Under the pieces are notes generated by a model. The model was given only the letters and a program-made list of their open reading frames with translations, was not told the origin of the DNA and made no database searches. A stretch of 63,575 nt of DNA, the filler included, from Atractiella rhizophila (Eukaryota): assembly GCA_021432655.1 (NCBI GenBank). It is 5 parts of 4 records of this genome, joined end to end, with 100 filler letters (N's around TTAATTAATTAA, not from the genome) between each part and the next. Parts side by side here need not be neighbours in the genome. Positions count along the whole stretch, not along the records: positions 29,225 to 59,515 come from MU271208.1; 4 more parts are not named here. One strand, given 5' to 3'. The position numbers and the translations under genes are program-made. Each line of letters opens with the position of its first letter. Positions within the stretch are counted from its first letter, which is position 1. Of the stretch, positions 12,839-61,531 are shown piece by piece.

Positions 12839-13403
12839 NNNNNNNNNNNNNNNNNNNNNNNNNNNNNNNNNNNNNNNNNNNNNNNNNNNNNNNNNNNNNN
12901 NNNNNNNNNNNNNNNNNNNNNNNNNNNNNNNNNNNNNNNNNNNNNNNNNNNNNNNNNNNNNNNNNNNNNNNNNNNNNNNNNNNNNNNNNNNNNNNNNNNN
13001 NNNNNNNNNNNNNNNNNNNNNNNNNNNNNNNNNNNNNNNNNNNNNNNNNNNNNNNNNNNNNNNNNNNNNNNNNNNNNNNNNNNNNNNNNNNNNNNNNNNN
13101 NNNNNNNNNNNNNNNNNNNNNNNNNNNNNNNNNNNNNNNNNNNNNNNNNNNNNNNNNNNNNNNNNNNNNNNNNNNNNNNNNNNNNNNNNNNNNNNNNNNN
13201 NNNNNNNNNNNNNNNNNNNNNNNNNNNNNNNNNNNNNNNNNNNNNNNNNNNNNNNNNNNNNNNNNNNNNNNNNNNNNNNNNNNNNNNNNNNNNNNNNNNN
13301 NNNNNNNNNNNNNNNNNNNNNNNNNNNNNNNNNNNNNNNNNNNNNNNNNNNNNNNNNNNNNNNNNNNNNNNNNNNNNNNNNNNNNNNNNNNNNNNNNNNN
13401 NNN
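12839..13403. other. Scaffold gap, 565 N
   Basis: Run of N without linker. Confidence 1.
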
Positions 13404-14561: not shown

Positions 14562-14661
14562 NNNNNNNNNNNNNNNNNNNNNNNNNNNNNNNNNNNNNNN
14601 NNNNNTTAATTAATTAANNNNNNNNNNNNNNNNNNNNNNNNNNNNNNNNNNNNNNNNNNNN
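14562..14661. other. Artificial contig linker
   Basis: 44 N + TTAATTAATTAA (stops in six frames) + 44 N. Confidence 0.99.
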
Positions 14662-16125: not shown

Positions 16126-16670
16126 TGTCAGGTTTGCATCTTACGCAAATCGGCGCCTGTTCGCCACTCTGCGTCCCCCGTCGCCACTCTGCGTCCCCCG
16201 TCGCCACTCTGCGTCCCCCGTCGCCACTCTGCGTCCCCCGTCGCCACTCTGCGTCCCCCGTCGCCACTCTGCGTCCCCCGTCGCCACTCTGCGTCCCCCG
16301 TCGCCACTCTGCGTCCCCCGTCGCCTATTTGCACGCAGTGCAAATCGGCGCCTGGTCGCCGTTCGCCCATTTGCGCCTGCATCACCACTTAGCCCATTTG
16401 TGTCTATTCTCCTCTTATTAACTCCGCGTAATCCCACTGTCACTTTCCCCTTTTAGTTCTCTTACATGTTTCATCTGCTCTCCTCTACACCCTGTGGCAG
16501 TGTTATTCCGCTTGTATATATAGATCAGAGAGTAGTGGAGGTGAACTCAGAGTATTCTCTTAGGTTTATCTCCACTACAGGTTAGTCTTCATGTCATATC
16601 ATGCACTTAGGTTTATCACTACTACAGACGCATCACCCGTCGGCGACCGCACATAGTGTCAGCCCTAACA
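16126..16670 (+). mobile_element. Ty3/Gypsy solo LTR with 5-bp target-site duplication AGATG
   Basis: TGTCAGG...GTGTCAGCCCTAACA termini match the full-length element's LTR; AGATG at 16121-16125 and 16671-16675. Confidence 0.95.
16161..16325 (+). repeat. Minisatellite, 8 perfect copies of TCGCCACTCTGCGTCCCCCG, inside solo-LTR U3
   Basis: Directly counted, no spacers. Confidence 0.97.
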
Positions 16671-28492: not shown

Positions 28493-28856
28493 TGTCAGGT
28501 TTGCATCTTACGCAAATCGGCGCCCGTTCGCCGGATTGCGTCTCCTATCGCCCATTTGCGTTCCCTGCGAATCGGAGCCCGGTCGCCACTGCGTCTCCCG
28601 TCGCCTATTTGCACGCAGTGCAAATCGGCGCCCGTTCGCCCGTTCGCCCATTTGCGCCTACATCACCACTTAGCCCAATTGTGCCTATCCTCCTCTTATT
28701 AACTCCGCGTAATCCCACTGTCACTTCCCCTTCTAGTTCTCTTACATGTTTCATCTGCTCTCCTCTACGCTCTGTGGCAGTGTTATTCCGCTTGTATATA
28801 TAGATCAGAGAGTAGTGGAGGTGACCTCAGAGTATTCTCTTAGGTTTATCTCCACT
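28493..28856 (+). mobile_element. 3'-truncated Gypsy LTR, same subfamily as 16126-16670
   Basis: Near-identical U3, TATA and hairpin; similarity stops at TCTCCACT. Confidence 0.92.
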
Positions 28857-29124: not shown

Positions 29125-29224
29125 NNNNNNNNNNNNNNNNNNNNNNNNNNNNNNNNNNNNNNNNNNNNTTAATTAATTAANNNNNNNNNNNNNNNNNNNN
29201 NNNNNNNNNNNNNNNNNNNNNNNN
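29125..29224. other. Artificial contig linker
   Basis: Same 100-bp linker. Confidence 0.99.
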
Positions 29225-40832: not shown

Positions 40833-41190
40833 AGAAGGAGATCAGTTGTGACAATGTAAGATGGAAAGAAACACTTACAAGTCACGACGCGTTGACTCAT
40901 TCCGATAAGCTGTGATGGGGTAAGTCACAGTTCGAAAGCAAAAAGGATCAGAATGCGTCTAACTCACTAAGGAGTGGCCACGTGCCTGCAGGCATCAGGA
41001 TGAGCCAGAAGGAGATCAGTTGTGAGGATTTAAGAGGGAAAGAAACACTTACAAGTCACGACGCGTTGACTCATTCTGATATGCACTGCGACGGGCAAAT
41101 CGCATTGTTGAAAGAGGCAACAAAAGGGATCAGAACGCGTCTAGCGGGCTAAGGAGCAGCCACGTACCTCTGCAGGCAGTAGGACGAGCC
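40833..41190. repeat. Diverged tandem duplication, 174-bp period
   Basis: Units start at 40833 and 41007 (AGAAGGAGATCAGTTGTG) and share GAAAGAAACACTTACAAGTCACGACGCGTTGACTCATTC. Confidence 0.9.
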
Positions 41191-42635
41191 ACTGTGTTAT
41201 TGATTCCCTCGTAGCGTCCTCCTCTAAAGTCCCATCATCCTGAAAGAAAAACAAACCAACTTTCTGACACGGGATGACCGTCACGTCAATTCAGACTCAC
41301 CCTATCCCGTGTCTGGCTGCTCAAAGAGAATCATATTCGAATTTGGTGCCAAAATACCTCATTTCGACGATATTGACGCGTCCACAGATTCCTATCGCGT
41401 CAGACTGTAAAATGCGGAACATCCTATGGAGCGTGTTTCAAAGGTGCCTTCGTCCCAGTTTAGTCGATAGGGGTATCGAAGTTTACAGGAAGAGTTTGAC
41501 GCGTCGATTGTGGATGTGAGGGGCGAAATTGTCGACTTTGTCGTTTGGGGACGGTGGTTAGTGGTGCTCAGACTTAGACTTCCCGTGCGCAAACAACCAA
41601 CTCTAGCACCTTCGACCTTCAAATCTGGATGACCTGAACAATGTGTCTAGGTTGTACCACAAATTTAAAGGTGGATACTCTCCACTCGGTCTGCCATCAG
41701 ACACATTCCACAAATCAAGCTGACCAATCCAGACACTGTCAAAGGAGTTCACTTTCGGCTTCTCTCCATCCGACCCCTTCCTTCTCTTGATCGGTTGTCC
41801 CCCTTGTGAGCTACAGTCTCTGAGTGGTGGCAGATGGGACTCTGCTCCAGTAGCAGCGGAATGAGTGGGGTAATGATTTGTTCAGAGATAAAATTGCAAT
41901 AAGATAACTTGCTTTAGTTCTACTTCATACAGTCTAATATGTTAAACAGTCAAACATGCCGAATAGTGTTATGATAAGCACAGAGCGCTAGAGCTAAGCT
42001 TCATAAATTAAAGATTCTTAACCGAAACTTTGCCTTTCTGAAGGAGCACACGTTCTACAAGGACATCCTTCGTGCCTTTTGCATCCAATCCAAAAGACTG
42101 TTCCCAGAGTTAAGTCAGCTACCAAGCTACGAAACGGAGTAGAACAGAGTTACGAGCAAAGCTTGCTTTAGAAGTGGGATAGTCGTCTTTAATCTACAGG
42201 CTTCATCGTCTCCTGCTAAGAGAAACGTCCAAATTGGTGATGCAGACATCTTGCCAGGCTTTTCAGAATGGACATAGACGGTCCCTTTGGATTCGAGCTG
42301 AACCGCCTTTCTGCCTGCTTTCCTCTTCCCATCAGAAACATTACCCCCAGGAGTAGAATTGGACTTGGTAGAAAGCTCTATTTGAGAACTTGGCGCATCG
42401 AAGGAGACGGTGCCAGTGGAAGCAGGAGTTGTAATTATCTTTGGGAAGGTCGTACGTGTCAACGTGTGTTTATTCCCATTGTTGCGTAGCAGCTGGACTG
42501 GAGCTGGCAGTTTCGTGGATCCTTTCTTCGGCATCTCAGATGGTATGGAAAGAGTAGAAACAGAGGCTGTCGTCTGAGAATCAGTTGGGGTCGTAGTGGG
42601 GACCGCCGTAGCGGCTGCGGCCATGAGAAGCACAT

Positions 42636-43076
42636 TGTCAGGCTTGCCCCTACGCATTACCGAAATGCACCTTCTGGAGTCACGTGACCTACTTTACCAT
42701 GCATAGGATCACGCACCTGCCCATCGCCGCTTTGCTCACGTTCACGCCGATCGCCGCTTTCCCCTGTCTCACACGAATCGCCGCTCAGCAAACCTTAAAC
42801 ATTTCGCCGGTCTGTATCATCTCCATTATTACCTTTATTGTCCTTTCTCACTTGTACTGCTTAGTATGTCTTATTTCCGAGTATTCCCTTTATTGCTTTC
42901 CTGATCCAACTATCTTACATGTTTCAAGAAACGTATGTTACAGTTTATGGCAGTGCCCTTACATATATATATATACATCGAGATGTAGTGGTGGTGACCT
43001 CAGAGTATTCTCTTAGGTTTACCTCCACTACAGACGCATCGCCTATCGGCGACCGCACATAGTGTCAGCCCTAACA
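42636..43076 (+). repeat. 5' LTR
   Basis: Identical by eye to 50874-51314; TA run 42962-42975; GTCACGTGAC palindrome at 42679. Confidence 0.98.
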
Positions 43077-43078
43077 GA

Positions 43079-43088
43079 AGAATACTCT
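43079..43088 (+). promoter_or_regulatory. Self-priming primer-binding site (Tf1/sushi type)
   Basis: AGAATACTCT is the exact reverse complement of LTR 43002-43011 AGAGTATTCT; no TGG tRNA-type PBS. Confidence 0.85.
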
Positions 43089-43117
43089 CTCTCATTTTCA
43101 AAACCAAAGTTAAAAAA

Positions 43118-44415
43118 ATGTCGGAGGTTTGGGGAGATATGGAAACGCGCGAACCGCCGACCAGCGAGGAACGCATCCAGCACTTAGAAAGGATGTTCCA
43201 AACTCTACACCTCACAACTGAAAAACAATTCAAAAAACTCGAACAAGACCTCATAACAAGCTTCAACCAACAAAATGCGCAAACCTCCCAGAATGCGAAC
43301 GAAATTGCGCAACTGAGGTCCGACGTCCAAAACACAAATGACCGAATTTTACAATTGCTAGACTCCAGACTACCCCTCCTAGAGATAGTGGGACCACTTC
43401 CCCCTTTTTATCGCGAACAGACCCAATACCTCAGGCTTACCCTTCTCCCTCTATACCCCAAACTGCCCAAGTTGCACCATATGCAGGTATCAAACTTGCC
43501 CCACCTTCAATCTTCAAAGGAGTACCCAACACAGCTCCGACATTTTTACGCGAAATTTACGTCTACACGTCTACTGTTCCAGGCCAATTCCCGACCGAAA
43601 AATCGAAAATCCTATTTACCCTTTCTTACATGAAAGAAGGAGATGCGGAAAAATTCGCCGCTGGGATTTTGCGCCGACTTGTCGAAAACGAGGAACAAAT
43701 TTCGTGGGAACAATTTTTGTCGGAGTTCAAAGCGCGTTTCTGCAAGACAGACCACAAGCTCATTGCGCAGACAAAAATATCATCCCTCCAACAAAAAGGG
43801 AACCTAGAAACCTACATCATCAAGTTTGAAGAATTGGCAAATCAAGCTGATTTTGATGATGAAGCCCTCATTTTTTTCTTCAAACGGGGACTCAATCCTG
43901 CCCTACACCTCAAAGTAACCCAAGGGGAGTTCCCAAAATCGCTGGAAGACTGGAAAGAAAAATCTCGGCGAATTGATGCGGAAGAATCTGCTCATTCAAC
44001 CTTCTTTCAAAACATCCCATCGGCGAAAGACGGACCACAAAATACATTTTCTGCAAAAAGAGACAGCTCAAAATCCTCAAAGCACAGAGAGAACAGAACG
44101 CCAGTATCGTATCGACCGAGCGCCGCATTGTCACCGGCCGCCGATCCGCCACCCAATGCCGCTCCACACGCTCATAGGGCCAAAGACCCCGATGACATGG
44201 AAGTTGACGCGACAAAGTCTAGACCTCCCCGTTGCAGGCGATGCCAGAAGATAGGACACCGAGAAAGAGAGTGTAGAACGATTATGAGCAAGGAGCAATA
44301 TCTTCGGGCCCAAGGAGAATATTTTGATTCGAAAATGATACATCTCGGACAATTCGCCGACCAGTCGCCGAAAACGAGTGCTACCCAATCGAAAGATCTT
44401 GAGGAGGATTTTTAG
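43118..44415 (+). CDS. gag: Gag with CCHC zinc knuckle, frame discontinuity near 43318-43380
   Basis: Second frame, open from 43342, has KLAPPSIFKG..KSKILFTLSYMKEGDA, DDMEVDA and CRRCQKIGHREREC; ATG 43118 is in another frame. Confidence 0.9.
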
Positions 44416-44486
44416 GACGGCGGTGGGTGGAAGAAGTGTCCCCATCGCCGAATTGCAATTCATTTACGTCACATAAAATCACTTCC
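44406..44486 (+). promoter_or_regulatory. -1 ribosomal frameshift signal between gag and pol
   Basis: G GAT TTT before the gag stop, 5-nt spacer, 10-bp stem 44418-44427/44441-44450; pol is in the -1 frame. Confidence 0.85.
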
Positions 44487-47400
44487 AACAAGATGCCGCC
44501 CAGCACAGTATTCCCCCCACGAGAACAAGACCCCCCATTCCCGAAGTTGCGTTTTCCCTCCTGGAGACAAAGATGCGCAGAAGTCGCAAAAATGTATGAC
44601 AAAGTCCACCTACGCTCGACTACAGCATCCCTCGTCAGTTCGAAGACGAAGCTCAGAACCGCATTCCACCATCCACATTCCCATCGCCGACACGCCACAT
44701 CGGCGCTCGTCGACAGCGGCGCAACTACTTCTTTCATTTCTCCAAAACTCGTTTCTGCATACAACCTACCTGTCACTCAACTTCCCTCCCCAGTACCTGT
44801 TTATAACATCGACGGATCCCTCAATCAAGGAGGATCCATCCACTCTGTTACTTACTTGCCCATTTCGATCGCCGCTCACCATGAAGTTTGGCAATTCGCT
44901 GTAGCGGAGTTAGGGACTGTCGACATGATTTTAGGCCACGACTGGCTAAGACACCACAACCCAGAGATCAACTGGGACTCAGGGAAAGTTGAGTTCTCTC
45001 GCTGCCCTACCAGTTGCAATGCAGATGACGTGTCTACCACTCGCGAAAAATTCCCGCCATCATCTACCTCGATACGAGCCGCTATGACAAAATCGCAGAA
45101 ACTGGCGAAAGACGCAGCGGCGATGAGACCAAAAAATGTCGTCGAAATACCAACGCAAATCGCCGATTTTGCAGACATCTTCGACGACGAAAAATTCAAA
45201 ACTTCTCTTCCTCCCCGACATCCTTGGGATCACGCGATCAACCTCATACCCGAAGCACGACCATATGCGGGACCGGTCTACCCCTTGAAAAGAGACGAAC
45301 AAGCGGCGCTCGACCAATTCATTGACGCCGAACTAAGCGCCGGCCGTATACGTCCTAGCACAGGTGAACATGGAGCCTCAGTTTTCTTCACGCACAAAAA
45401 AGACTCATCTGAACTTCGTCCCCTTTTCGATTATCGGAAGCTGAACGAAGCCACAGTCAAAGACAAGACCCCACTCCCCATTCAGGCTGACCTCTTTTCC
45501 ATGGTCTCAGGTAAAAAGTTCTTCAGCAAGATTGATCTGAGGAAAGGGTTCAACAACGTTCGTATCAAAGAAGGAGACGAACACAAAGCGGCGTTTCGCA
45601 CAAATCGAGGACTTTTCGAACCATTGGTAATGTATTTCGGACTCTGCAACTCACCGGCGACTTTCCAAGCTTTCCTGAACTCTATTTTCCGCACTATGAT
45701 CGCCACTGCGTTCATCTTCATATACATAGACGACATCCTAATTGCGACAGAAACTGAAGAAGAACACTGGGAACGCGTTCGACAAGTTTGTCAAGTTTTA
45801 CGCGAAAATGGGCTTTATGTCAACTTACAGAAATGTGTCTGGTGTCAAAGCGAAGTAGAGTATCTAGGTTTGATCATTACCAGCAGAGGGATCGAACCGG
45901 ATCCAGTAAAAGTTGCAGGAGTGATGGATTGGCCGGAACCGAAGAACATGAAGGAAGTCCAAATGTTCCTCGGTTTCGCTAATTTCTATCGCCGCTTTTG
46001 CGACAGATTTAGTCACATCGCAAGACCTTTATATGAACTGACCAAAAAGGGGATTTCCTGGGTCTGGGGGGTAGATGAACGACGTTCGTTCGCCGCTCTG
46101 AAGCAGCTCATGACTTCTGCGCCCGTTTTGGCACATCCCGAACAAATAGGACGATTTTTGCTTGAAGTCGATGCGTCAAATTTCGCGACAGGCGCTGTTT
46201 TGTCGCAAATGAAGCCAGATGGGAAGTTTCATCCTCTCGGTTTCGTATCAAAATCGCTCGACGCTGCCCAGAGGAACTATGACACCTACGACAAAGAAAT
46301 GCTCGCAATTATGCGAGGACTGCAAGAATGGAGACACCTTCTTCAAGGTACTGATGAGCCATTTCTGATCTTGACCGATCACAAAAATCTTGAGTATTTC
46401 AGGATGCCACAAAAGTTGAATCGGCGACAGGCACGCTGGATCACCGAACTTGCATCTTTCAACTTCACTCTTTTACACCGTCCTGGACGAAACTCCGCAA
46501 AACCAGATGCGCTCAGTCGGCGACCGGATCACAAACCGGCGACTTGCGACAACTTTGACGTAGTATTACTCCCAGAACGTTTTTTCAACACGGATCGTAT
46601 CACGATCAACGCGACTGGGAGCGCAGTTGCGCTCACTAGACAAATGTCAGAGTTGAGTATACTGGAACGTGTGAAAAAGGTACCTGAACGGGAAGAACAA
46701 GTAGTCAAAGCCTTGAGAGAGATCCTAGACGAACCAGTCGACGCAATTCGCCGACGGGAGTGGCAAGAAGTTGACGGCGCTGTCTACTTTCGAGGGAAAC
46801 TTTACATTCCCCGAGACGACGAAATTCGCCGCTCGATTTTGCAAGACCTGCACGATTCGCAAATCGCCGGTCATCCAGGTGTAAAATCAACGACGGCTCT
46901 CATAAAAAGGTACTACTGGTGGCCGGGTATGGCGCATTACGTTCGCCGCTATGTCGGCGCCTGTCACACTTGCCACAGAACAAAAAACTTTCCTTCCCCA
47001 CCTGTCGGGTTTTTGCAACCAAATGACATTCCCACGCGTCGATGGCAAATTGTCAGCATGGACTTGGTTGGACCACTCCCAGAATCTGGGGGGTTTGACA
47101 CGATTTTCGTCATAGTAGACAGACTCTCAAAACGCACCCATCTCATCCCCACCCATTCGACGATGGATGCAGAAGGCCTTGCAAGACTTTTTCGCGATCA
47201 CGTATGGAAGCTACATGGACTTTTCGATGTCGCAATTTTTGATCGAGGCAAAGAGTTTGTGTCCAAATTCACATCCGCGCTTTTTCGCCTATTGGGTATC
47301 AAAGGCTCACCATCGACAGCCTATCACCCGCAAAGTGATGGTCAGACTGAACGCATGAACCAAGAGGTTGAACAATATTTGCGCATTTTCTGCAATCACC

Positions 47401-48206
47401 TTCAAGATAATTGGGTAGAAGGACTTCCCAACGCAGAATTTGCGCTCAACAATCGCGTCAGTTCGGCGACGGGCGTAACTCCATTTTCGCTCGATTGCGG
47501 TCAACATCCCCGCATGGCCTTTGAACCCATCTCCGACGAGGACGTTCCCGCGGCGGCGCAATTCGTCGAAAAGATGCAAATCGCCGACCGGGAAGCACAA
47601 GCGGCACTCGAGCAAGCAGCAGATCTCATGGCAAAACATTATGACAGAAAGCGCGCACCGGCGCCCGAATATCATGTCGGCGATTTCGTCTGGTTGAGCG
47701 CGAAAAACATCAAATCGACGAGACCTGTCAAGAAGTTAGACGACAAATGGCATGGCCCTTTTCGTGTTTTGCAAGTTTTGGGTCCCCTCAACCTTAAACT
47801 CGAGTTGCCATCCTCATGGAAGATACATCCAGTGTTCCATGTAGGTCTAATACGAAAAGTCAACGAAGACGACATCCCGGGCAGAGTCCAGTTGCCCAAA
47901 CCACCTCCAGAATTGGTGAACGGAATTGAAGAATGGGAAGTGGAGAAAATTGTCGATGGAAAATGGTTCGGTACCCGAAATAGAGTTTTCAAATATCGCG
48001 TTCGATACAAAGGGTATTCACCATCTGAGGACGAGTGGATCAACATCGCAGATCTAGAAAATTCGCAGGACGCTATAAAAGACTATCACACTGCACACCC
48101 TCTCGCAGTTCATCCCAATTCCATACCGAACTCCGCAAAAAATCGCCCAAATGCACGTTTTCGTAACCTTCGACGAAAACACGCTGAAGGGTCTTCCTCA
48201 CTTTAA
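44427..48206 (+). CDS. pol: Pol: protease, RT, RNase H, integrase, chromodomain; intact
   Basis: LVDSGA, DYRKLN, YIDDIL, VDASNF, HHCC, SMDLV/FDRG/QTERMN, GPF, WEVEKIV..YRVRYKGY..DEW. Confidence 0.99.
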   Translation: MEEVSPSPNCNSFTSHKITSNKMPPSTVFPPREQDPPFPKLRFPSWRQRCAEVAKMYDKVHLRSTTASLVSSKTKLRTAFHHPHSHRRHATSALVDSGATTSFISPKLVSAYNLPVTQLPSPVPVYNIDGSLNQGGSIHSVTYLPISIAAHHEVWQFAVAELGTVDMILGHDWLRHHNPEINWDSGKVEFSRCPTSCNADDVSTTREKFPPSSTSIRAAMTKSQKLAKDAAAMRPKNVVEIPTQIADFADIFDDEKFKTSLPPRHPWDHAINLIPEARPYAGPVYPLKRDEQAALDQFIDAELSAGRIRPSTGEHGASVFFTHKKDSSELRPLFDYRKLNEATVKDKTPLPIQADLFSMVSGKKFFSKIDLRKGFNNVRIKEGDEHKAAFRTNRGLFEPLVMYFGLCNSPATFQAFLNSIFRTMIATAFIFIYIDDILIATETEEEHWERVRQVCQVLRENGLYVNLQKCVWCQSEVEYLGLIITSRGIEPDPVKVAGVMDWPEPKNMKEVQMFLGFANFYRRFCDRFSHIARPLYELTKKGISWVWGVDERRSFAALKQLMTSAPVLAHPEQIGRFLLEVDASNFATGAVLSQMKPDGKFHPLGFVSKSLDAAQRNYDTYDKEMLAIMRGLQEWRHLLQGTDEPFLILTDHKNLEYFRMPQKLNRRQARWITELASFNFTLLHRPGRNSAKPDALSRRPDHKPATCDNFDVVLLPERFFNTDRITINATGSAVALTRQMSELSILERVKKVPEREEQVVKALREILDEPVDAIRRREWQEVDGAVYFRGKLYIPRDDEIRRSILQDLHDSQIAGHPGVKSTTALIKRYYWWPGMAHYVRRYVGACHTCHRTKNFPSPPVGFLQPNDIPTRRWQIVSMDLVGPLPESGGFDTIFVIVDRLSKRTHLIPTHSTMDAEGLARLFRDHVWKLHGLFDVAIFDRGKEFVSKFTSALFRLLGIKGSPSTAYHPQSDGQTERMNQEVEQYLRIFCNHLQDNWVEGLPNAEFALNNRVSSATGVTPFSLDCGQHPRMAFEPISDEDVPAAAQFVEKMQIADREAQAALEQAADLMAKHYDRKRAPAPEYHVGDFVWLSAKNIKSTRPVKKLDDKWHGPFRVLQVLGPLNLKLELPSSWKIHPVFHVGLIRKVNEDDIPGRVQLPKPPPELVNGIEEWEVEKIVDGKWFGTRNRVFKYRVRYKGYSPSEDEWINIADLENSQDAIKDYHTAHPLAVHPNSIPNSAKNRPNARFRNLRRKHAEGSSSL

Positions 48207-48560
48207 GGGGTCCAACACCCCTATATGCCTTGCCGGGTGAAATCCTAGTCTTTGAGACTTAGGTCAAGGCAAGGCGCCGACTTGCTCCTCAACGGGCAAG
48301 TCGGCGACTTGGTCGTGGGTGAGTCCATTCGTCGCCCGTCAAAGACAAATGCTCATTGCGTTCTCGCACCATCACCAATGTCGCATTTACGAAAATTGTC
48401 CTCAATCGCGAGGTCCCCTCCCCCTCACTTTAAGAGGTCCTACTCCTCTATATGCCTCGCTGGGTGAATCCCTAGTCACACTGTTGAACATAGGTCTAAG
48501 CGAGGCGCCGGTCTGTTCCTCAACGGACAGATCGGCGACCGGTTTGTCGGTGAGTTACTC
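48196..48560 (+). ncRNA. Two copies (227-bp period) of a candidate structured cis-RNA element after the pol stop
   Basis: Three helices with compensatory substitutions between copies; loops conserved. Confidence 0.65.
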
Positions 48561-49264
48561 ACCCCATTATCACAAACGGTTGCTTACTGCACCAAAAACA
48601 ACACCGGTCAAACTTCAAAAAATCCCTCAATTGCGAGGTACACGATGACTTCCCCTCATCCTACACTCTGTTTTGGTTTTGATGATTATTGTTTCCTGTT
48701 TTTGCTTTTACATTTTGCTTCCCATCCTTGTTCGCTCGACAACACATTCTTCCACAAAGAAGACAGACCAGCGACGAGCACGCAAATCGCCGACACGTTA
48801 TACTGCGCGTTGTGTCCACGAACGCGTGGCCCGGGCCTATTTGGTTGCGAGCTCCATAATAAGCTTGGGTAGCTAGTGGGAGGAACACCTGAGGGTCCTC
48901 CCCTAGACAGGGGAGTGTGAGTCCTGCATCACCCACTTGGCCATTGCTCTCCTCACTCACCACAATGCCTTATGCCACCATGACACGATTTACACTTGTC
49001 GCCGCCTGGCGATTCGCCGCTGTTACGGAGGCGCAAAACGAATACATTTCAGAGATCAAAATCACCACTCTGGACTGACTCCTCACTATCGCTGCTGCTC
49101 GAAGAAGAAACGGAATGTGCATCATAATTGGAATTGTCATAGGCCTCTTGGGCTAAAGAAGGATTTAAGTCGCCCAGTCGAAACTCAATTTCGCCGATAC
49201 GACGTATTTTCTGCAACTGGCGATGGGTCAGGTGCCCTACGATGCCTAAACAACATCTAGATAG

Positions 49265-50749
49265 TCAGACAGATCGCCGAAAAACGGATGAACTCACCCT
49301 ACCAGTCACATCGGCGATCACACCTTCCACAGCCGAATCTTCACTAGCCCCATCCTCCGCGGCTCGATCGTCCTGCCTCCTTTTATACAATTCCATCTGC
49401 AACTCAGCGGCCTTCAGGGCGTCCGCCACCGCTTGCGCATTCAATTTGGCGGCAGCTAACATGGTTTGCGCGAAGTCCAGGCTGAATGCCTCAGAGTACA
49501 ATCGGGCGGCGCTCAGCAACGACTGCGAAGGAGAATCCTCGTCGACGTCCGAAATATTCTCGTAATTGCTTTCGATGAGAGCCGAAGGACGTTTTTTCCC
49601 GTCGCCGATACGTTTAGGATGGAATGAAGTCGACATTACGACCAACATTGAGAGTTCCCGCAAATAACCCAATGGCAAAACCTCACACCTTTTTCGCAAA
49701 CTATGACAACGCGAACAGACCCGTCCGAACGCGGTTGCGACATACCCAGCAGAGAAGTCGCACACCTGCGAGTCGTTGTCACCCTTGGCTTTCTTTTTCG
49801 CCGCTTTGACAGGCGCCGCTCGAACCTTTCCAGTACAATTGCTACAGCGCTGTGTCCCGATGCTTGCTAACGTGGGAAGAATGCGCGCATTCGCCCGAGG
49901 AGTCGTGATAACCAATTCGAGATCCAGCTCACCCAGATTGATGTTCGCCGCAGCGTGGGAATAAGCCTCACGAGTACCCGGCCAGAAGTACCGGTATTTC
50001 GCCGCATCCAATTCCTTGTCGCCGATTCGAACTTTCCCGTCGCGCACTACGAATTCGGCGACCGGCGCACCGGCGAACGGATTTCGATCCCCCAACGCTG
50101 CAGGCAAAACGAAAGTAGTTGCAGTAACCAGGTGGTCGGACAAGGTCCTCACGACCCCGACCTCGGATCCCTTCGTCGCCGAAATCGACTTTTGAGCGCG
50201 CAAATTTTCCTCCGCCGCTCGACGTTTAATTTCAAGCGCCGCCCGTTTTCGCTCCTCTCCTTCCTTAGCCAAGCGTTTTTTCGTGTCAGACAGGAAAAGA
50301 TCTCGTTCTTTCCTTCGCAAAACAGGGTCGCCGTTCGCCGACTCGGAGGGCTGATACCCGAGTTTCACCGCTTCCTCCTCGATGAGCGCCGCTTGTTCGG
50401 CCCAAAGACGAAGTTCATCACGCAATACCTGCAGACTTTCCACAGGCATCCGCAGAGGAAATGACAGAACCCGCTCATCACCGAAACCTTTAACGGCCTC
50501 GTAAGCCATTCGCACCTTCCCATCGCCGACGAGTTACCACACAATATACGAGACAAGAAAACTCACCTCTGCTTGCACCTCATCACAAAATTTGACATAC
50601 AGAGGGTAGCACCTTTTCCCCCACTCCAGCACATCGGCGAATCGCCCGAAGTTCACCTCCTTCGCCTTCTCCACGTCCCAGTAAATGGTACTCTCTTTCC
50701 TGTCCTTGTTCGCCAGAACGAAGTCGAAGAGTTGCGCATCGGTCGACAT
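49265..50749 (-). CDS. Antisense accessory gene inside the Gypsy, 2 exons, about 477 aa, Zn2Cys6-like cluster and coiled coils
   Basis: Exon 1 50749-50567 (61 codons), phase-0 intron 50566-50516 (GTGAGT...GTAAC...AAG), exon 2 50515-49265; C-x2-C-x24-C-x14-C-x2-C-x6-C. Confidence 0.85.
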
Positions 50750-50873
50750 TTTTGCAAGAATGGAAGCAGGGTGATGGTGGTAGAACTGGAAAAATTTTTC
50801 GCCCAAGCTAGCCGCAAACCTTAACTTTAAAATTCCGTGACTCACGTACACGAGTCAGTAATTTGGGGGGTGT

Positions 50874-51314
50874 TGTCAGGCTTGCCCCTACGCATTACCG
50901 AAATGCACCTTCTGGAGTCACGTGACCTACTTTACCATGCATAGGATCACGCACCTGCCCATCGCCGCTTTGCTCACGTTCACGCCGATCGCCGCTTTCC
51001 CCTGTCTCACACGAATCGCCGCTCAGCAAACCTTAAACATTTCGCCGGTCTGTATCATCTCCATTATTACCTTTATTGTCCTTTCTCACTTGTACTGCTT
51101 AGTATGTCTTATTTCCGAGTATTCCCTTTATTGCTTTCCTGATCCAACTATCTTACATGTTTCAAGAAACGTATGTTACAGTTTATGGCAGTGCCCTTAC
51201 ATATATATATATACATCGAGATGTAGTGGTGGTGACCTCAGAGTATTCTCTTAGGTTTACCTCCACTACAGACGCATCGCCTATCGGCGACCGCACATAG
51301 TGTCAGCCCTAACA
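50874..51314 (+). repeat. 3' LTR
   Basis: Identical by eye to the 5' LTR; preceded by GGGGGGTGT. Confidence 0.98.
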
Positions 51315-52241
51315 CACATCGAGGCTAGAAGCGCTTCGTGGGGAGGTAACTGTGCCCCAATATTAATACCTCTGGAGCCTTTAATGAAGGAGGAAAGGGA
51401 CATACCAATAAGTCCCAGCTCAGCACAATCAGACGGTGCGAGCTGAAGAGACTGTCAATATTAGAAGCATCAGAAGCATTTCAAGAAATACACCTTTCCA
51501 ATAATTCCCTCTCCCCCACCCTGAACCCAGCCCTCCGTTACCCCTTTCAACAGCTTATGCAGCTTCCTTGTAAGCACGAGGTAACACCCTCTTCCTGCCT
51601 CTCTTTCCAATACCATGCCGCTCCCTATCACAGTGAAAAGCTCTCTGAGGTGTGAAACAGACGCGATTCGTTCCCATGCACATAAGGACTTTGTTGCTTC
51701 CTCCGGGTCCAGCTTGTGGCCGAATCCTGTCTCTAAATCGTCGGCCGCATCTTCTCCAACTTGTTCACGTTTTGCTGCAAGCTTCCATACTGACAGTTCC
51801 TCTCGTAACACTGAGATGAAGTGACTAATAGTTCTGACCTTGTGAATCGTTCCATCGGTCTTCTGAGGGAGGTTAATCGAGACTTCTTTTGGGTGATGCT
51901 GTTTCAGAAGGATCGAGCTTGAGAGTTGCTGCCACAGTCTCTTGAAGAGTGGTTCTTCACCCAATTCAAGTTGACGAGTGATTTCATCTGTACAAATCAT
52001 CAGCTTTATTGAACAGTTAGAAACTTGCACATACCAAAACCCACCGAAACCTGTTCTTCAGACAATTCGAGGATTACTCCTGACGACATCACATCCATCT
52101 ACTGTGCATGAAACTTCAGTACTGCTGCTTCATGTGGGCTAATAAACAAGCGTCACACCTAGTTGAGAGACTTCCAACACATCGCCTTCTTTATGCAGTG
52201 GAGGGATTAGCTGCGTAGTGGCTCTGATGGTAGGTGAAGGC

Positions 52242-55200
52242 ATGGATGCCGAGCTTGACCTTCTGCGTTTTGAGGTAGGTGTTGGCTGCTCAAAAACCTT
52301 AGAATCGTAATATAAATGATAGGAGAGGACAGAAACTAACAACTATGGCCCGCTGTGCCGACATCCCCATCTAGAGATACCCATTCCACATACACAACCG
52401 GAGGACGAAAACATCGATGAGGAGAATGATGTAGAACCGGACGAGGCAGTTGGTCTGCATGGAGAAGAGCTGAGGGAGAGAGAGTTGGAGTTTGCCATAG
52501 AAGCGGAGGTGGAGTTGGATGCCATAGAAGCAAGTGAAGAATCGGAATTTGGAAACGGAAGGAAGCTTGAGGGAGTGAACCTGCTACAGGAGAGTGAACG
52601 GTAAGTAAAGTTTTGTTTTAGCGGTAAAACTAACAACAACTTGCAGAATGGATAGAACTGCATCAGGATTGCTGGAGATCCAAGCATCCGATGTCATTCA
52701 TGTCCTCAAAGTTGACCACAACCCCGGACCACGCCCTCAGTATATCCCTGATCCTCCATCTCCTCTCTCATGCGAAGATGAATGGACATTACGACATCTA
52801 CGAGCGTGGTTAGGGACTGTCGGAGCAAAGCAGAAAGCATACGAAGACCATGCAGCTAATCTTCGAGCATGTGGAAAGGAGGTTGGATCCCTTCACCGTG
52901 CAAGAAAGCTATTGTGCCGGCTGTCACGATTGAGCCCACAGTGGTTTGACCAGTGCGTTGATACGTGTATGGCCTTTACAGGGGAGTACGCGGATCCATC
53001 TTTCGATCACTGCATCGTCTGCTTTCAACCTCGGTTCACAAGTGGAAAGGAGCGCCGGACTGGTTCGCGGATTCCTGGTTTGCGGGTTCCTAGACGGCGT
53101 TTTGCATATCTTAGCTTCTTGCCTCGGATACGAGCACTCTTTGAAAATGAAGAGACGGCACGTACCATAGGAGACTTTGGGAAGATGTTGAAAGAGAGTG
53201 TTGAGGTTGTGGACAAGGCGCAAAAGCAGTATAGAGACTGGTACGATGGAGAGTGCCTTCACAACCTTCATAAATCGAACCTGAAAGTCCTCGACGATCC
53301 ACGCGAAACCGGCTTTTACGCCTCGAGCGATGGCGCGTCTCTCCAACTTCGCAAAGCGGAAAGCAATGCATGGGTCTTCGTCCTCACCGCTTCTTGCTAC
53401 CCTGCCAAGACCCGGTATCGAAAGGAGCACTTATTCCTCCTCTGCATTATTCCCGGCCCTCATAACCCCAAAAGAATTGCCACTTTTTTCCACCAGTTCT
53501 TCCACGAGATCACTGTTGCCTCGCTGGGCCACTGGCTGTTCGACCGAGCAAAGGAGGAGTGGTTGTTATGGAAGGCATGGCTATTGGGGAAGCTGGGAGA
53601 TCTTCATGGATCGACATACTTCAGTGGTGGCACAGGTCATATAGGAGCATGCGGATGCCGTTTCTGTAAACTTCAAGGTCAGCTACGAGCAAAAGGAATA
53701 GTACCACATTTTTTTCCTTGGAAGACGGTCCCTTGGGTTGATGACAAGGGCAACTGGTATCTTCCAGTCAACAACAAGCGACCGAAACAGTACGACCCCT
53801 ACGATGAAGATCTTCTTCGAACACCAGAGGATTACTACTGGGCTCTCAGGCAGCTCAACGAAGCGGGTTCAGAGGCCGCAAGAAAGCAGGTTTACAAGGA
53901 CACAGGAATCAAACGGCCCTCTGACTGCTCTATCCTTCCTACATTCATCGACATCTCCACTTTCCATCCTCTCGACATCTCTCATCTCACGCTTGCAGAC
54001 CTCGTAGCTCTCGTTTTCAAGATTTGGATTGGGAGCATGCCGGCCAAAGATCCGGATTGTGAGCCGCTACTCCTTACGCAGGACCAGCAGATCATGATAG
54101 GAGAGATGGTTCAAAACGCTGGTTCTGACCTCCCCGTTCTCTTGTCGGCGACTGCTCCACGGAATATCCATGAATACAAGAACACGCATTACAAAATGAA
54201 CGAGTGGTGGGCATGGGTCGACTGGTACTCCCTCCCCATCCTTATTCATCTTGGAGTGAACAAAGAAGTCCTCAACAATTGGGACACCTTCATTCAAGGC
54301 TTCCGGTTGGCTTGGCAGCACGAATGTTCTGAGGCAGAGGTCAAAGCCATGCAACTTTACTTCAACGAATGGGCTATCGGTTTCGAGCGCCTGTACGTCC
54401 GAGACGTTGCTGAAAATATTGATCGCACAACTATGAACTTTCACTCTGTCGCCCATCTCCCCCTTAATACGCGCAACCATGGCCCCTCGATTCTCATCTC
54501 CCAACTTCCTTGTGAGCGCATTATTGGTCAGAGCAAGGAATCTATTACTCAGAAGGCGAAGTATTTCGAGAACATGATGCAGAACATGATCCACAGGGAG
54601 CAACTCAACATTGTCGACATTCTCTACCCTTCCAATGAGTATAACTTTGGCTTCACCTCTTCAAAGACTCAGCGGGAACGTAATGCGAAGTTTGGTCTCT
54701 CTTTGGTAGGACCAAAGTGGTCCTCTTTCCCCTACACCAGAGTTCAAGGAGAAGAGAAGGAGGATTGGGTTAAGGAACTCATCACCCTCAAGGACTACTG
54801 TACGACCTGCGGCCTTGAAATTCCCAACGATGATGCAGAATTTGAAGAGATGGCTGCTGCGTGGACTCGGTGGGGAAAGGCTACATTGGAGAATGGTGAT
54901 CTCATCTGCTCAAGACGTCAGGAGAGAGGAAATGTAAAAGTTACTCGGTCGCACAGGCGCATGCAGGCATGTGGTTGGATTCAGAAAAGAGAACAATCTA
55001 ATGAGAGCTTTGCAGGCATTCTCGACGGATGGTCAACCTATTTTCTGCGAAGTCCACTGCTTCCTTCAGGTACCTCTACAACCGCAGTCCAAATGGAGTG
55101 TCAAACGAAGTGTTGCGGTTGTTCAGTACTATGATGAAGTCAAGACCCCATACCGGAGTGTGATCCAGACTCGATTCAACGGTGCATGGGGAATCGTTCC

Positions 55201-56742: not shown

Positions 56743-57100
56743 TGTCAGGCTTTGTGAATCCACACCCAGTTGCCTGTTCGCCTATTTGCACTCTCATCAC
56801 TGCTCTGTATCTCCTGTCACCCATTTGTATTCTGTGCAAGTTGGCGCCTCTTTACACTTCTATCGCAACTATGCTTTTCCTTTTTGGTTCTCTTACATGT
56901 TTCATATACTCTCCTCTACACTTTGTAGCAGTGTGATTCCGCTTGGATATAGATCGGAGATAAGTGGAGGTGACCTTAGAGTGTTCTCTTAGGTTTATCT
57001 CCACTACAGGTTAGTCTTCTCATGTCATATCATGCACTTAGGTTTATCTCCACTACAGACGCATCACCCATTGGTGAGTGTATATAATGTCAGCCCTAAC
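56743..57100 (+). mobile_element. Decayed Gypsy LTR, intron-containing variant
   Basis: TGTCAGGC...TGTCAGCCCTAAC; hairpin and 22-bp direct repeat as in 16126-16670. Confidence 0.9.
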
Positions 57101-57124: not shown

Positions 57125-57765
57125 CTTAGGTTCATTCTATATACAAGTGGAATAATACTGCCTCTAAGTGTAGAAAGTAGTATAGTCAATAAGAGGAGAG
57201 AAAATACAAATTCACCAAGCGGCGACACGAGGCATAGAGTGGCGATGGGAGTGCAAACGGGCGCTGGCTCACACAGAATGTAAATGGATGACAGGAAACA
57301 CAGGCAGCAATGAGAAATGCAAGTAGGCGAATGGGTGACAGGAGACACAGAGTGGCAATGCGAGTGCAAATGGGCGAATGGATGCTGATATGCGCAGAAC
57401 ACAAATGGGTGATGTGAGACACAATCCGGCAAATGGGAGCTGATTTGCACAGGACGCAAACCTGACACGATGCTTTCCTTGTGAACATAACTGTGCTCAC
57501 AGTTGCACTAATGGTGATATGATCTGTGTTGAAGAAACACTCAAAGAGTAGCACAACATCGGAATTGTTACAAGTCGCCAGTTTGTGATCCATTTTCGAA
57601 CTGAGCACACACGAGTTTGTGGAATTTTCTTCGGGATGGTGTAAAAGTGAAGTTGAAAGGTGCAAGTTCAGTAATCCAATTTGCTTGTCTCCAATGCAAC
57701 TTTTGGCCATCCTGAAATACTCAATGTTTTTGTACTCTGTCAAGATCAAAAAGGGCTCATCAGTC
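57125..57765 (-). mobile_element. Inverted truncated Gypsy LTR (to 57467) plus decayed pol RNase H fragment (57468-57765)
   Basis: Reverse complement begins TGTCAGGTTTGCG at 57467; TDEPFLILTEYKNIEYFRM..DHKLATCNNSDVVLL aligns to about 46350-46640. Confidence 0.88.
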
Positions 57766-58006
57766 CTCTCCTCTGAAGGAGGAATCTCCCTTCTTTCAGT
57801 CCCTCCTCTTTTTGTTGTTAAGTGTGTGGGGTTTATCCTCTTTGTGCTTTCATGAAGGCCACTATTCCTCATTCCTCCTCCCTTGTAGTTTCTTTTAACC
57901 TTCTGTGCCTTTCACTAAAGTATTCATGCAAGTATTTCTTACCCTAAAGATACCCTACTTTGCCCCGTAACTGATTATCGACTTGACATAGCAATGACCT
58001 GTTAGT

Positions 58007-59515: not shown

Positions 59516-59615
59516 NNNNNNNNNNNNNNNNNNNNNNNNNNNNNNNNNNNNNNNNNNNNTTAATTAATTAANNNNNNNNNNNNNNNNNNNNNNNNNNNNN
59601 NNNNNNNNNNNNNNN
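59516..59615. other. Artificial contig linker
   Basis: Same 100-bp linker. Confidence 0.99.
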
Positions 59616-61431: not shown

Positions 61432-61531
61432 NNNNNNNNNNNNNNNNNNNNNNNNNNNNNNNNNNNNNNNNNNNNTTAATTAATTAANNNNNNNNNNNNN
61501 NNNNNNNNNNNNNNNNNNNNNNNNNNNNNNN
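61432..61531. other. Artificial contig linker
   Basis: Same 100-bp linker. Confidence 0.99.

Follow-up and report, generated by a model that had tools for sequence, protein, structure and literature searches.

Antisense accessory genes of long terminal repeat (LTR) retroelements are known from the plant Retand/Tat elements and from the deltaretroviruses. HBZ of HTLV-1 is a spliced antisense bZIP gene situated beside the 3' LTR or beginning within it, and its product is a nuclear regulator of LTR-driven transcription. The accessible portion of PMC11963269 reports that HTLV and STLV encode antisense genes, and that the Retand elements carry between pol and the 3' LTR antisense open reading frames (ORFs), mostly with a TRP28 domain predicted to bind DNA, together with tandem repeats. 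Here we describe an antisense gene in a fungal element, a complete Ty3/Gypsy chromovirus LTR retrotransposon at 42636-51314 of a 63,575-nucleotide stretch of Atractiella rhizophila DNA (assembly GCA_021432655.1; hereafter the window, to which all positions refer), the gene lying in the 3' part of the element. Set against those known cases, it stands out by its fungal host, the chromovirus lineage, the spliceosomal introns, an orphan protein and a short motif, TCGCCG, which is spread over the whole element.

By analogy, the antisense ORF region of the plant Retand elements is the closest known architecture. As in the Retand/Tat elements with their TRP28 ORFs, or Grande with its gene 23, an enlarged region between pol and the 3' LTR contains a gene on the opposite strand, and repeats adjoin pol, and for those elements too a nucleic-acid-binding product is predicted and a regulatory role proposed (accessible portion of PMC11963269). 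However, they are non-chromoviruses of flowering plants, whereas the present element is a fungal chromovirus, and our antisense gene has neither TRP28 (PF04195) nor any other Pfam domain, TRP28 and bZIP giving no Pfam match at E ≤ 10. Furthermore, one or two spliceosomal introns interrupt it, whereas the main text of PMC11963269 nowhere uses the word "intron", and it resides on an element with an element-wide motif, of which the accessible portion of that paper describes none. The closest functional analogue would be HBZ of HTLV, which likewise runs antisense in the 3' terminal part of a retroelement, beside the 3' LTR, the splicing being putative in our case. Unlike HBZ, the protein described here has no bZIP or other known domain, belongs to a fungal retrotransposon rather than an infectious retrovirus, and is known from sequence alone.

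An earlier note on this DNA had described an intact two-exon gene of 477 amino acids (aa) between pol and the 3' LTR, and we reproduced this model exactly, with its TGA at 49267-49265 and with the good start context claimed for it, ATG 50749 reading gcaaaaATG. Past this TGA the frame remains open for 71 more codons, until the TGA at 49051-49049, the chance of which is (61/64)^71 ~ 0.03. A second GTGAGT donor is found at 49297, eight codons ahead of the first TGA, with two in-frame CAG acceptors downstream that would start a putative exon 3 at 49216 or 49210, and the putative intron thus delimited contains the TGA that terminates the 477-aa model. The database model of one relative, P0002, also exits the frame after the same ...TGR residue as this putative donor. 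Judging from these signals, a three-exon product of ~520 aa ending at 49049 is more likely than the 477-aa form. The gene so drawn spans 49049-50749 on the minus strand, between the pol stop at 48206 and the start of the 3' LTR at 50874:

50567-50749, minus strand: exon 1, 61 codons, from ATG 50749; its N-terminus is common to 6 of 7 relatives.
50516-50566, minus strand: intron 1, 51 nucleotides (nt), GTGAGT...GTAAC...AG, with an in-frame TAA; the junction is the same in the models of relatives P0002 and P0003.
49298-50515, minus strand: exon 2, 406 codons.
49217-49297, minus strand: putative intron 2, 81 nt (or 87 nt if the acceptor at 49211 is used), with a GTGAGT donor, a CTGAC branch and a CAG acceptor.
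49049-49216, minus strand: putative exon 3 (predicted), 53-55 codons plus the stop at 49051-49049, a Ser-rich acidic tail.

Over 49049-50749 (1701 nt) the coding minus-strand frame has 3 stops as compared to 11-32 in the other five frames, and two of these three sit within GTGAGT...AG intervals whose lengths are multiples of 3. No sequence among 1000 simulated under a first-order Markov model of the region attained its 422-codon open frame, whichever frame was read (median 155, largest 379), the GC content of exon 2 by codon position (0.61/0.46/0.58) is coding-like, and no long plus-strand ORF overlaps the region. The antisense intron-containing ORF is genuine and far longer than expected by chance, and we hold with fair confidence that it is a real gene. 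The opposite view, that there is no functional protein gene but a decaying relic or an antisense-RNA template, as in the copy-number control of Ty1, with fortuitous splice signals, is very unlikely given the simulations and the position of both internal stops in canonical short introns. Moreover, relatives that differ from the window copy at 9-26% of aligned residues keep the frame over 220-430 residues, and the start codon and N-terminus are the same in 6 of the 7 relatives. What speaks for such a relic is that most of the paralogous models are broken and that the identical LTRs have left no time for decay, whatever the function. An origin of the gene as a nested transposon was considered and rejected, as no terminal inverted or direct repeats bracket it; the sole 23-nt inverted pair near the gene (49008-49030 and 50624-50646) is the TCGCCG motif itself.

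Relatives of the antisense protein were sought in libraries of 5.8 billion clusters and of 1.84 billion representatives. Seven were found in total, each on a different contig and each labelled by its source as a hypothetical protein of Atractiella rhizophila. A word-indexed search gave six of them, 57-91% identical over the best local alignment, and an exhaustive HMMER search of the 1.84 billion representatives gave three close relatives, of which one, P0007, was new and was also the only one detected with the Cys region alone as query. Of the 599 pattern stretches that the protein family picked out in a metagenome scan, none encodes a relative, and no host paralogue was found in either library. 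The protein appears to form a small orphan family, confined to one species in the libraries searched, a confinement that may reflect sampling because, to our knowledge, few Atractiellomycetes have been sequenced.

Six of the seven relatives begin at the same Met; among these, P0002 and P0003 have the exon 1/exon 2 junction of the window, the model of P0005 reads into intron-like sequence and the other three skip more. The gene is multi-copy, and P0001 is the one relative demonstrably beside the same LTR: its alignment spans 51064-49388 and, as its first 35 residues map into the LTR, this copy adjoins an LTR of the same family. P0006 is a fusion with a relative of a tnp2-like ORF that neighbors the element in the window. 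Among the rows of the family alignment that cover the respective position, the first Cys of the six-Cys cluster discussed below is present in 5 of 5, the second in 4 of 5 (P0006 has Tyr) and the third in 3 of 5, the two others being already out of frame, whereas the last three are present in 2 of 3 rows (window and P0001), the third row being P0006, which has unrelated sequence there. As read from this alignment, such counts carry little information.

The cluster of six Cys with a Lys-rich first loop, as previously noted, is found at 49846-49685 (minus strand) and has the form C-x2-C-x24-C-x14-C-x2-C-x6-C. As for the coiled coils said to flank it, long helices are indeed predicted and nothing beyond helices: AlphaFold, run with the family alignment, places them at residues 23-49, 62-111 and 327-386 of the 414-aa exon-2 ORF, the predicted local distance difference test (pLDDT) score exceeding 70 solely in helices 23-49 and 62-111. 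The long charged helices, the Lys-rich loop, the two CxxC knuckles with two further Cys and the Ser/acidic tail make a composition that would be compatible with a nuclear nucleic-acid-binding protein, and no more than that.

The kinship with Zn2Cys6 proteins that had been read from this cluster did not hold. The consensus of the Gal4 type is C-x2-C-x6-C-x5-12-C-x2-C-x6-8-C, and x24 and x14, two of the five spacings, are outside the canonical range (x6 and x5-12). The profile search that had been suggested as a check reported no Pfam family at E ≤ 10, PF00172 included, for the Cys region, the exon-2 ORF or P0001. That the protein is a Gal4-type transactivator binding CGG/CCG triplets in U3 is scarcely probable in our opinion, despite several likenesses to PF00172 proteins: six Cys, the last three at the canonical C-x2-C-x6-C spacing, basic residues in the first loop, helices adjacent to the cluster on both sides, a fungal host, and a candidate motif that contains CGG/CCG-type triplets (CGGCGA) and is partly palindromic. 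In addition to the loops, it departs from that family in the position of the cluster, which is internal, about two thirds along the protein rather than N-terminal, and in that Pfam finds no fungal_trans middle domain. No Gal4-family chain was matched in PDB sequence searches with the Cys region and the family profile at E ≤ 10, which returned chance-level hits only, i.e., a ferredoxin (E = 0.66), two KcsA chains and a phosphatase (E > 1). Likewise, no Zn_clus cluster is among the listed neighbors in a language-model atlas, though this family is very large in fungi.

The same atlas, in which scores below 0.9 are leads only, places clusters that bear DUF3716 near the antisense protein, with a score of 0.78 for the whole ORF (family on 92% of members) and 0.82 for the Cys region (28%). 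This resemblance is a weak lead. Two DUF3716 genes are located within the IS3EU DNA transposon (REP9) of Zymoseptoria tritici, according to the accessible part of PMC8232023, and like the protein described here their products, of unknown function, are Cys-rich fungal accessory proteins on a mobile element. REP9 is a DNA transposon of an ascomycete. It is nevertheless distinctly unlikely that our Cys cluster is a divergent fungal DUF3716 (PF12511) and the gene a member of a wider class of transposon-borne DUF3716 accessory proteins, as all atlas scores remain below 0.9 and the Pfam scan, PF12511 included, was silent for the antisense protein at E ≤ 10. A bZIP protein, an idea raised by the charged helix and an AP-1-like site, was rejected as well, there being no Pfam match and no enrichment of TGASTCA; the inverted repeat TGACTCA..GAGTCA that had been noticed upstream of the gene is present at 50838-50857, but TGASTCA does not exceed chance (7 in the window vs 13 expected).

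The motif repeats pointed out previously in the U3 of the LTR are there, in the form of a 27-bp tandem array of about 2.5-3 units, each with ATCGCCGCT (Tandem Repeats Finder, TRF; 42709-42785 and 50947-51023). However, the motif is not confined to U3 but extends over the whole element, and all exact matches of ATCGCCGCT in the window (9 of 9) fall within the element:

42636-51314, no strand assigned: TCGCCG/CGGCGA, 53 copies, in LTRs, gag, pol, spacer, both introns and antisense exons.
42709-42785, plus strand: U3 27-bp tandem repeat with three ATCGCCGCT cores (TRF, exact matches); the same array at 50947-51023.

The 53 copies in the 8.68-kb element compare with 20 in the other 53,979 non-N bases of the window and with expected counts of 5.7, 6.2 and 19.2 under Markov models of orders 1, 2 and 3, and TCGCCG is the most over-represented hexamer of the element. 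When synonymous codons were shuffled within each gene, holding protein and codon usage fixed, the coding parts (gag, pol and the antisense gene) contained 7.1 +/- 2.5 sites as compared to the 35 observed, a number reached in 0 of 1000 shuffles (largest 15). Gene by gene, 17 sites were observed vs 2.7 in shuffles of pol and 11 vs 2.6 in exon 2. In this test TCGCCG ranks first of all hexamers (z = 10.3), followed by the overlapping CGCCGA/TCGGCG, and in pol it occupies two different codon phases. CpG richness as the cause was rejected, since a 3- to 9-fold excess persists against the Markov and synonymous-shuffle controls inside the element. Sites are most closely packed in the LTRs and in the region of the antisense gene, and their overall density of 6.1 per kb contrasts with 0.067 per kb (29 sites in 435.7 kb, maximum 0.5) in 80 related chromovirus loci.

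The sites fall mainly into a palindromic class, TCGSCGA (28 of 53), and a TCGCCGC class (18), the latter with a strand ratio of 17:1, plus over minus. Their flanks are symmetric, with C at -4 in 35 and G at +10 in 36 of the 53 sites, which suggests a 15-bp dyad. The Su(Hw) binding-site array of the Drosophila gypsy element resembles the present case in that a retroelement contains many copies of one short motif. The sites of that array, however, are clustered locally in an untranslated region and recognised by a host protein, whereas the 53 sites described here occupy both strands and extend, at synonymous positions, through the coding sequence of three genes. Three of the sites (49191, 49602 and 50019, one of them in putative exon 3) share a codon phase and encode R-I-G-(D/E), and here a peptide repeat is indistinguishable from the DNA motif. 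TpCpG has an observed to expected ratio of 1.56 in the element and 0.97 elsewhere in the window. In Pucciniomycotina this trinucleotide is targeted by hypermutation resembling repeat-induced point mutation (RIP) (accessible portion of PMC5381629), and the TpCpG richness of the element may or may not be meaningful. The literature retrieved with the motif strings was, judging by titles and abstracts, unrelated.

The element that carries gene and motif inserted very recently. The direct repeats at 42635-43076 and 50873-51314 are 100% identical in self-BLAST, and because both LTRs are identical the element must be very young. As read from the sequence the LTR is 441 bp in length, starts with TGTCAG and ends with CTAACA, i.e., has TG...CA termini. 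The features of the element outside the antisense gene are:

42631-42635, no strand assigned: 5' target-site duplication CACAT, read from the sequence; second copy at 51315-51319.
42636-43076, plus strand: 5' LTR, 441 bp, TG...CA, 100% identical to the 3' LTR (self-BLAST, ends read).
43118-44415, plus strand: gag in two overlapping frames, ORF 43118-43633 and ORF 43630-44415, the latter with Retrotrans_gag and CCHC.
44493-48206, plus strand: pol, 1237-aa ORF with protease, reverse transcriptase (RT), RNase H, integrase, SH3 and chromodomain (Pfam).
48196-48555, plus strand: pair of ~130-bp direct repeats after pol, 48196-48324 and 48423-48555, 78% identical.
50750-50873, minus strand: 124-bp stretch from the antisense ATG to the 3' LTR, with TGACTCA..GAGTCA at 50838-50857 and a G-rich polypurine tract at 50860-50873 (plus-strand reading).
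50874-51314, plus strand: 3' LTR, with the palindrome GTCACGTGAC at 50917-50926, motif repeats at 50947-51023 and a (TA)n TATA-like run at 51201-51213.

Pfam matches Retrotrans_gag in ORF 43630-44415 with E = 2.7e-14, whereas zf-CCHC in gag scores 18.4 bits, under its cut-off of 20.8. The order in pol is aspartyl protease (RVP_2, residues 70-170), RVT_1 (301-462, E = 2.6e-33), RNase H (RT_RNaseH, 554-656, E = 1.5e-32), Integrase_H2C2 (E = 4.5e-20), rve (849-946, E = 8.2e-10), SH3 and a chromodomain (PF00385) at residues 1148-1199 (E = 3.8e-08, 33.6 bits vs a cut-off of 25.1). The distance from pol to the 3' LTR is 2.67 kb, and the G-rich tract GGGGGGTG abuts the start of the 3' LTR.

Several further observations concern the element itself. 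The gag frames 42998-43633 (ATG 43118) and 43342-44415 overlap, the second being -1 relative to the first, and the pol frame, open from 44403, is another -1 relative to the second gag frame. These shifts could reflect programmed frameshifting at two points or, alternatively, a frameshift mutation in this copy, whose LTRs are still identical. The perfect 10-bp palindrome GTCACGTGAC of U3, with a CACGTG core, occurs at 50917-50926 and 42679-42688, and the 13-nt alternating (TA) run at 51201-51213 in the LTR is a possible TATA box of the sense promoter. A hairpin with a 10-nt loop (48270-48311; 16 nt, 94% complementary) is found in the first repeat unit after pol, and a GTCGGCGAC copy of the motif forms part of it.

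The 80 related chromovirus loci were taken from metagenomes and are 39-51% identical in the integrase-chromodomain part. A tblastn search with the antisense protein detected no relative in any of them (best E-value 1.7). Long minus-strand ORFs occur in several of the 27 loci that extend 1.5 kb or more beyond pol, and we considered these as counterparts of the antisense gene. Twelve ORFs (11 minus-strand, 1 plus-strand) from 6 loci were scanned with Pfam and the idea was rejected, since 9 of the 12 are gag, integrase or RT of other retrotransposons; the remaining 3 are without a family. In two loci with direct repeats that were read as LTRs (L040 and L048), the pol ORF either stops 75 bp short of the 3' repeat or extends into it. 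As far as these sequences go, the related chromoviruses examined appear to be without both the gene and the motif. Our literature searches of main publications retrieved, among the matches listed, no fungal chromovirus with an antisense accessory gene and none with introns. According to a figure legend in the accessible part of a fungal survey, some elements have an "additional ORF with unknown function", with no orientation given (PMC2864245), and the word "antisense" is absent from another survey of fungal LTR elements (PMC3248453). Publications naming Atractiella rhizophila, as judged by titles and abstracts among the matches listed, are not on its transposons.

We tentatively propose, at a probability that we place slightly short of even, and by analogy, that the gene encodes a nuclear, zinc-dependent, nucleic-acid-binding regulator of the element, with the element-wide motif as the best candidate target. 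Antisense transcription would start from a promoter of its own, in the 124 bp by the polypurine tract and/or out of the 3' LTR. By sound general logic, splicing of the plus-strand genomic RNA leaves an antisense intron untouched, and the introns would persist here because on that RNA they do not read as GT-AG introns. The product would be a nuclear, probably zinc-binding and probably dimeric factor acting on the element, and its candidate target is TCGSCGA with symmetric flanks (C-N3-TCGSCGA-N3-G), as well as TCGCCGCT, which is nearly always on the plus strand. Three copies of TCGCCGCT constitute the 27-bp U3 array, ~180-260 bp upstream of the TATA-like run at 51201-51213. This would be a reasonable position for an upstream activating sequence, and a protein bound there could promote or safeguard transcription of the element. 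The array of the 3' LTR lies ~200-275 bp upstream of the antisense ATG, and one array could serve both promoters. The mode of action would be like that of the plant Retand/Grande antisense genes and of HTLV HBZ. The weakest link in this chain is that the protein itself reads the motif, a step that we purely infer.

A number of observations weigh against this proposal. The majority of the relatives are represented in the databases by truncated, frameshifted or chimeric models, in line with the decay that transposon copies undergo, and all six Cys are kept only in the window copy and P0001. The AlphaFold models are too poor for a fold search, with a mean pLDDT of 46.3 for the family-alignment model and 30.9 for a model restricted to the central and Cys part; over the Cys region both fall to 25-33. 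The Pfam and PDB sequence searches gave no homology to any DNA-binding family, and among the longer database proteins none contains the exon-3 peptide at E ≤ 10. Furthermore, with identical LTRs an intact ORF in a single copy is expected, useful or not, and the motif could be readable by a host factor or at the RNA level, the TCGCCGC class being biased 17:1 to the plus strand. Finally, relative synonymous codon usage (RSCU) of the antisense gene is uncorrelated with that of gag and pol (r = 0.02), which fits a foreign origin and is uninformative on function.

This codon usage, together with a GC content at third codon positions of 0.58-0.72 in the antisense gene vs 0.46-0.49 in gag and pol, would also be in line with a passenger or a differently acting accessory gene, i.e., a real gene captured once from the host or from another element, whose product does not read TCGCCG. 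This product could be a chaperone, an antagonist of silencing that acts by protein contact, or useless to the element, whereas the motif would serve a host factor or the genomic RNA. The lack of homology to DNA-binding families is in keeping with such a gene, the strand bias of TCGCCGC suits an RNA-level or orientation-dependent signal, and since the related chromoviruses are without gene and motif, the two may have independent origins. We nevertheless consider a passenger rather unlikely, as the libraries yielded no host paralogue, gene and motif occur together in one lineage, the 28 palindromic sites of 53 and their symmetric flanks fit a dimeric binder of double-stranded DNA, and the highest motif density falls in the antisense gene region and the LTRs.

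The proposal of an element-encoded regulator can be carried further, to a version that we regard as quite improbable, namely self-recognition, in which a new zinc-cluster dimer reads the ~50 dyad TCG-S-CGA sites and shields the element from RIP-like defence or methylation, with the U3 array as an enhancer. Selection would then have written the sites into the LTRs, the introns and the synonymous positions of gag, pol and the antisense gene. Each TCG-S-CGA site consists of two head-to-head TpCpG trinucleotides, and shielding from RIP-like hypermutation could follow because the sites are TpCpG, its target in the accessible portion of PMC5381629.

The element sits in transposon-rich DNA. Just outside the 3' LTR, at 52648-55134 (plus strand), there is an 828-aa ORF with a weak match to Transposase_21 (tnp2; E = 1.3e-3, 18.4 bits vs a cut-off of 28.6), which the C-terminal part of P0006 resembles (22% identity, E = 1.8e-11), its N-terminal part being a copy of the antisense gene. 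The window contains a single copy of the element, in addition to short LTR-end-like fragments and one diverged RT fragment. The latter is a second, related Gypsy fragment at 57489-57802, 76% identical in DNA to pol 46317-46628, and lies within a 241-codon open frame (57186-57911, minus strand) that has no Pfam match at E ≤ 0.01. The regions 16515-16670, 28795-28856 and 56947-57100 contain pieces of 63-67 nt that are 84-92% identical to the last ~110 bases of the LTR and are possibly remnants or LTR ends of related elements. A tandem direct repeat of ~174 bp (40833-41191, units 81-92% identical), with TGACTCA in each unit, is found 1.4 kb upstream of the element. The N's of the window amount to 917 in nine runs, one of 565 (12839-13403) and eight of 44 as four pairs, 12 bases apart, at 14562-14661, 29125-29224, 59516-59615 and 61432-61531.

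For annotation, our analysis teaches that the label "Zn2Cys6" is not to be put on this family of antisense proteins. An antisense gene on an element studded with one symmetric motif may code for a regulator able to recognise the DNA of its own element. A fungal example in a culturable root endophyte provides a tractable system for the function of such genes, and a dyad-symmetric motif kept at synonymous sites of three genes is a rare and testable sign of selection at the nucleotide level on a whole transposon. If it is true that the protein of the element reads the motif, the two together would constitute a transposon-encoded device for self-marking or for countering defence.

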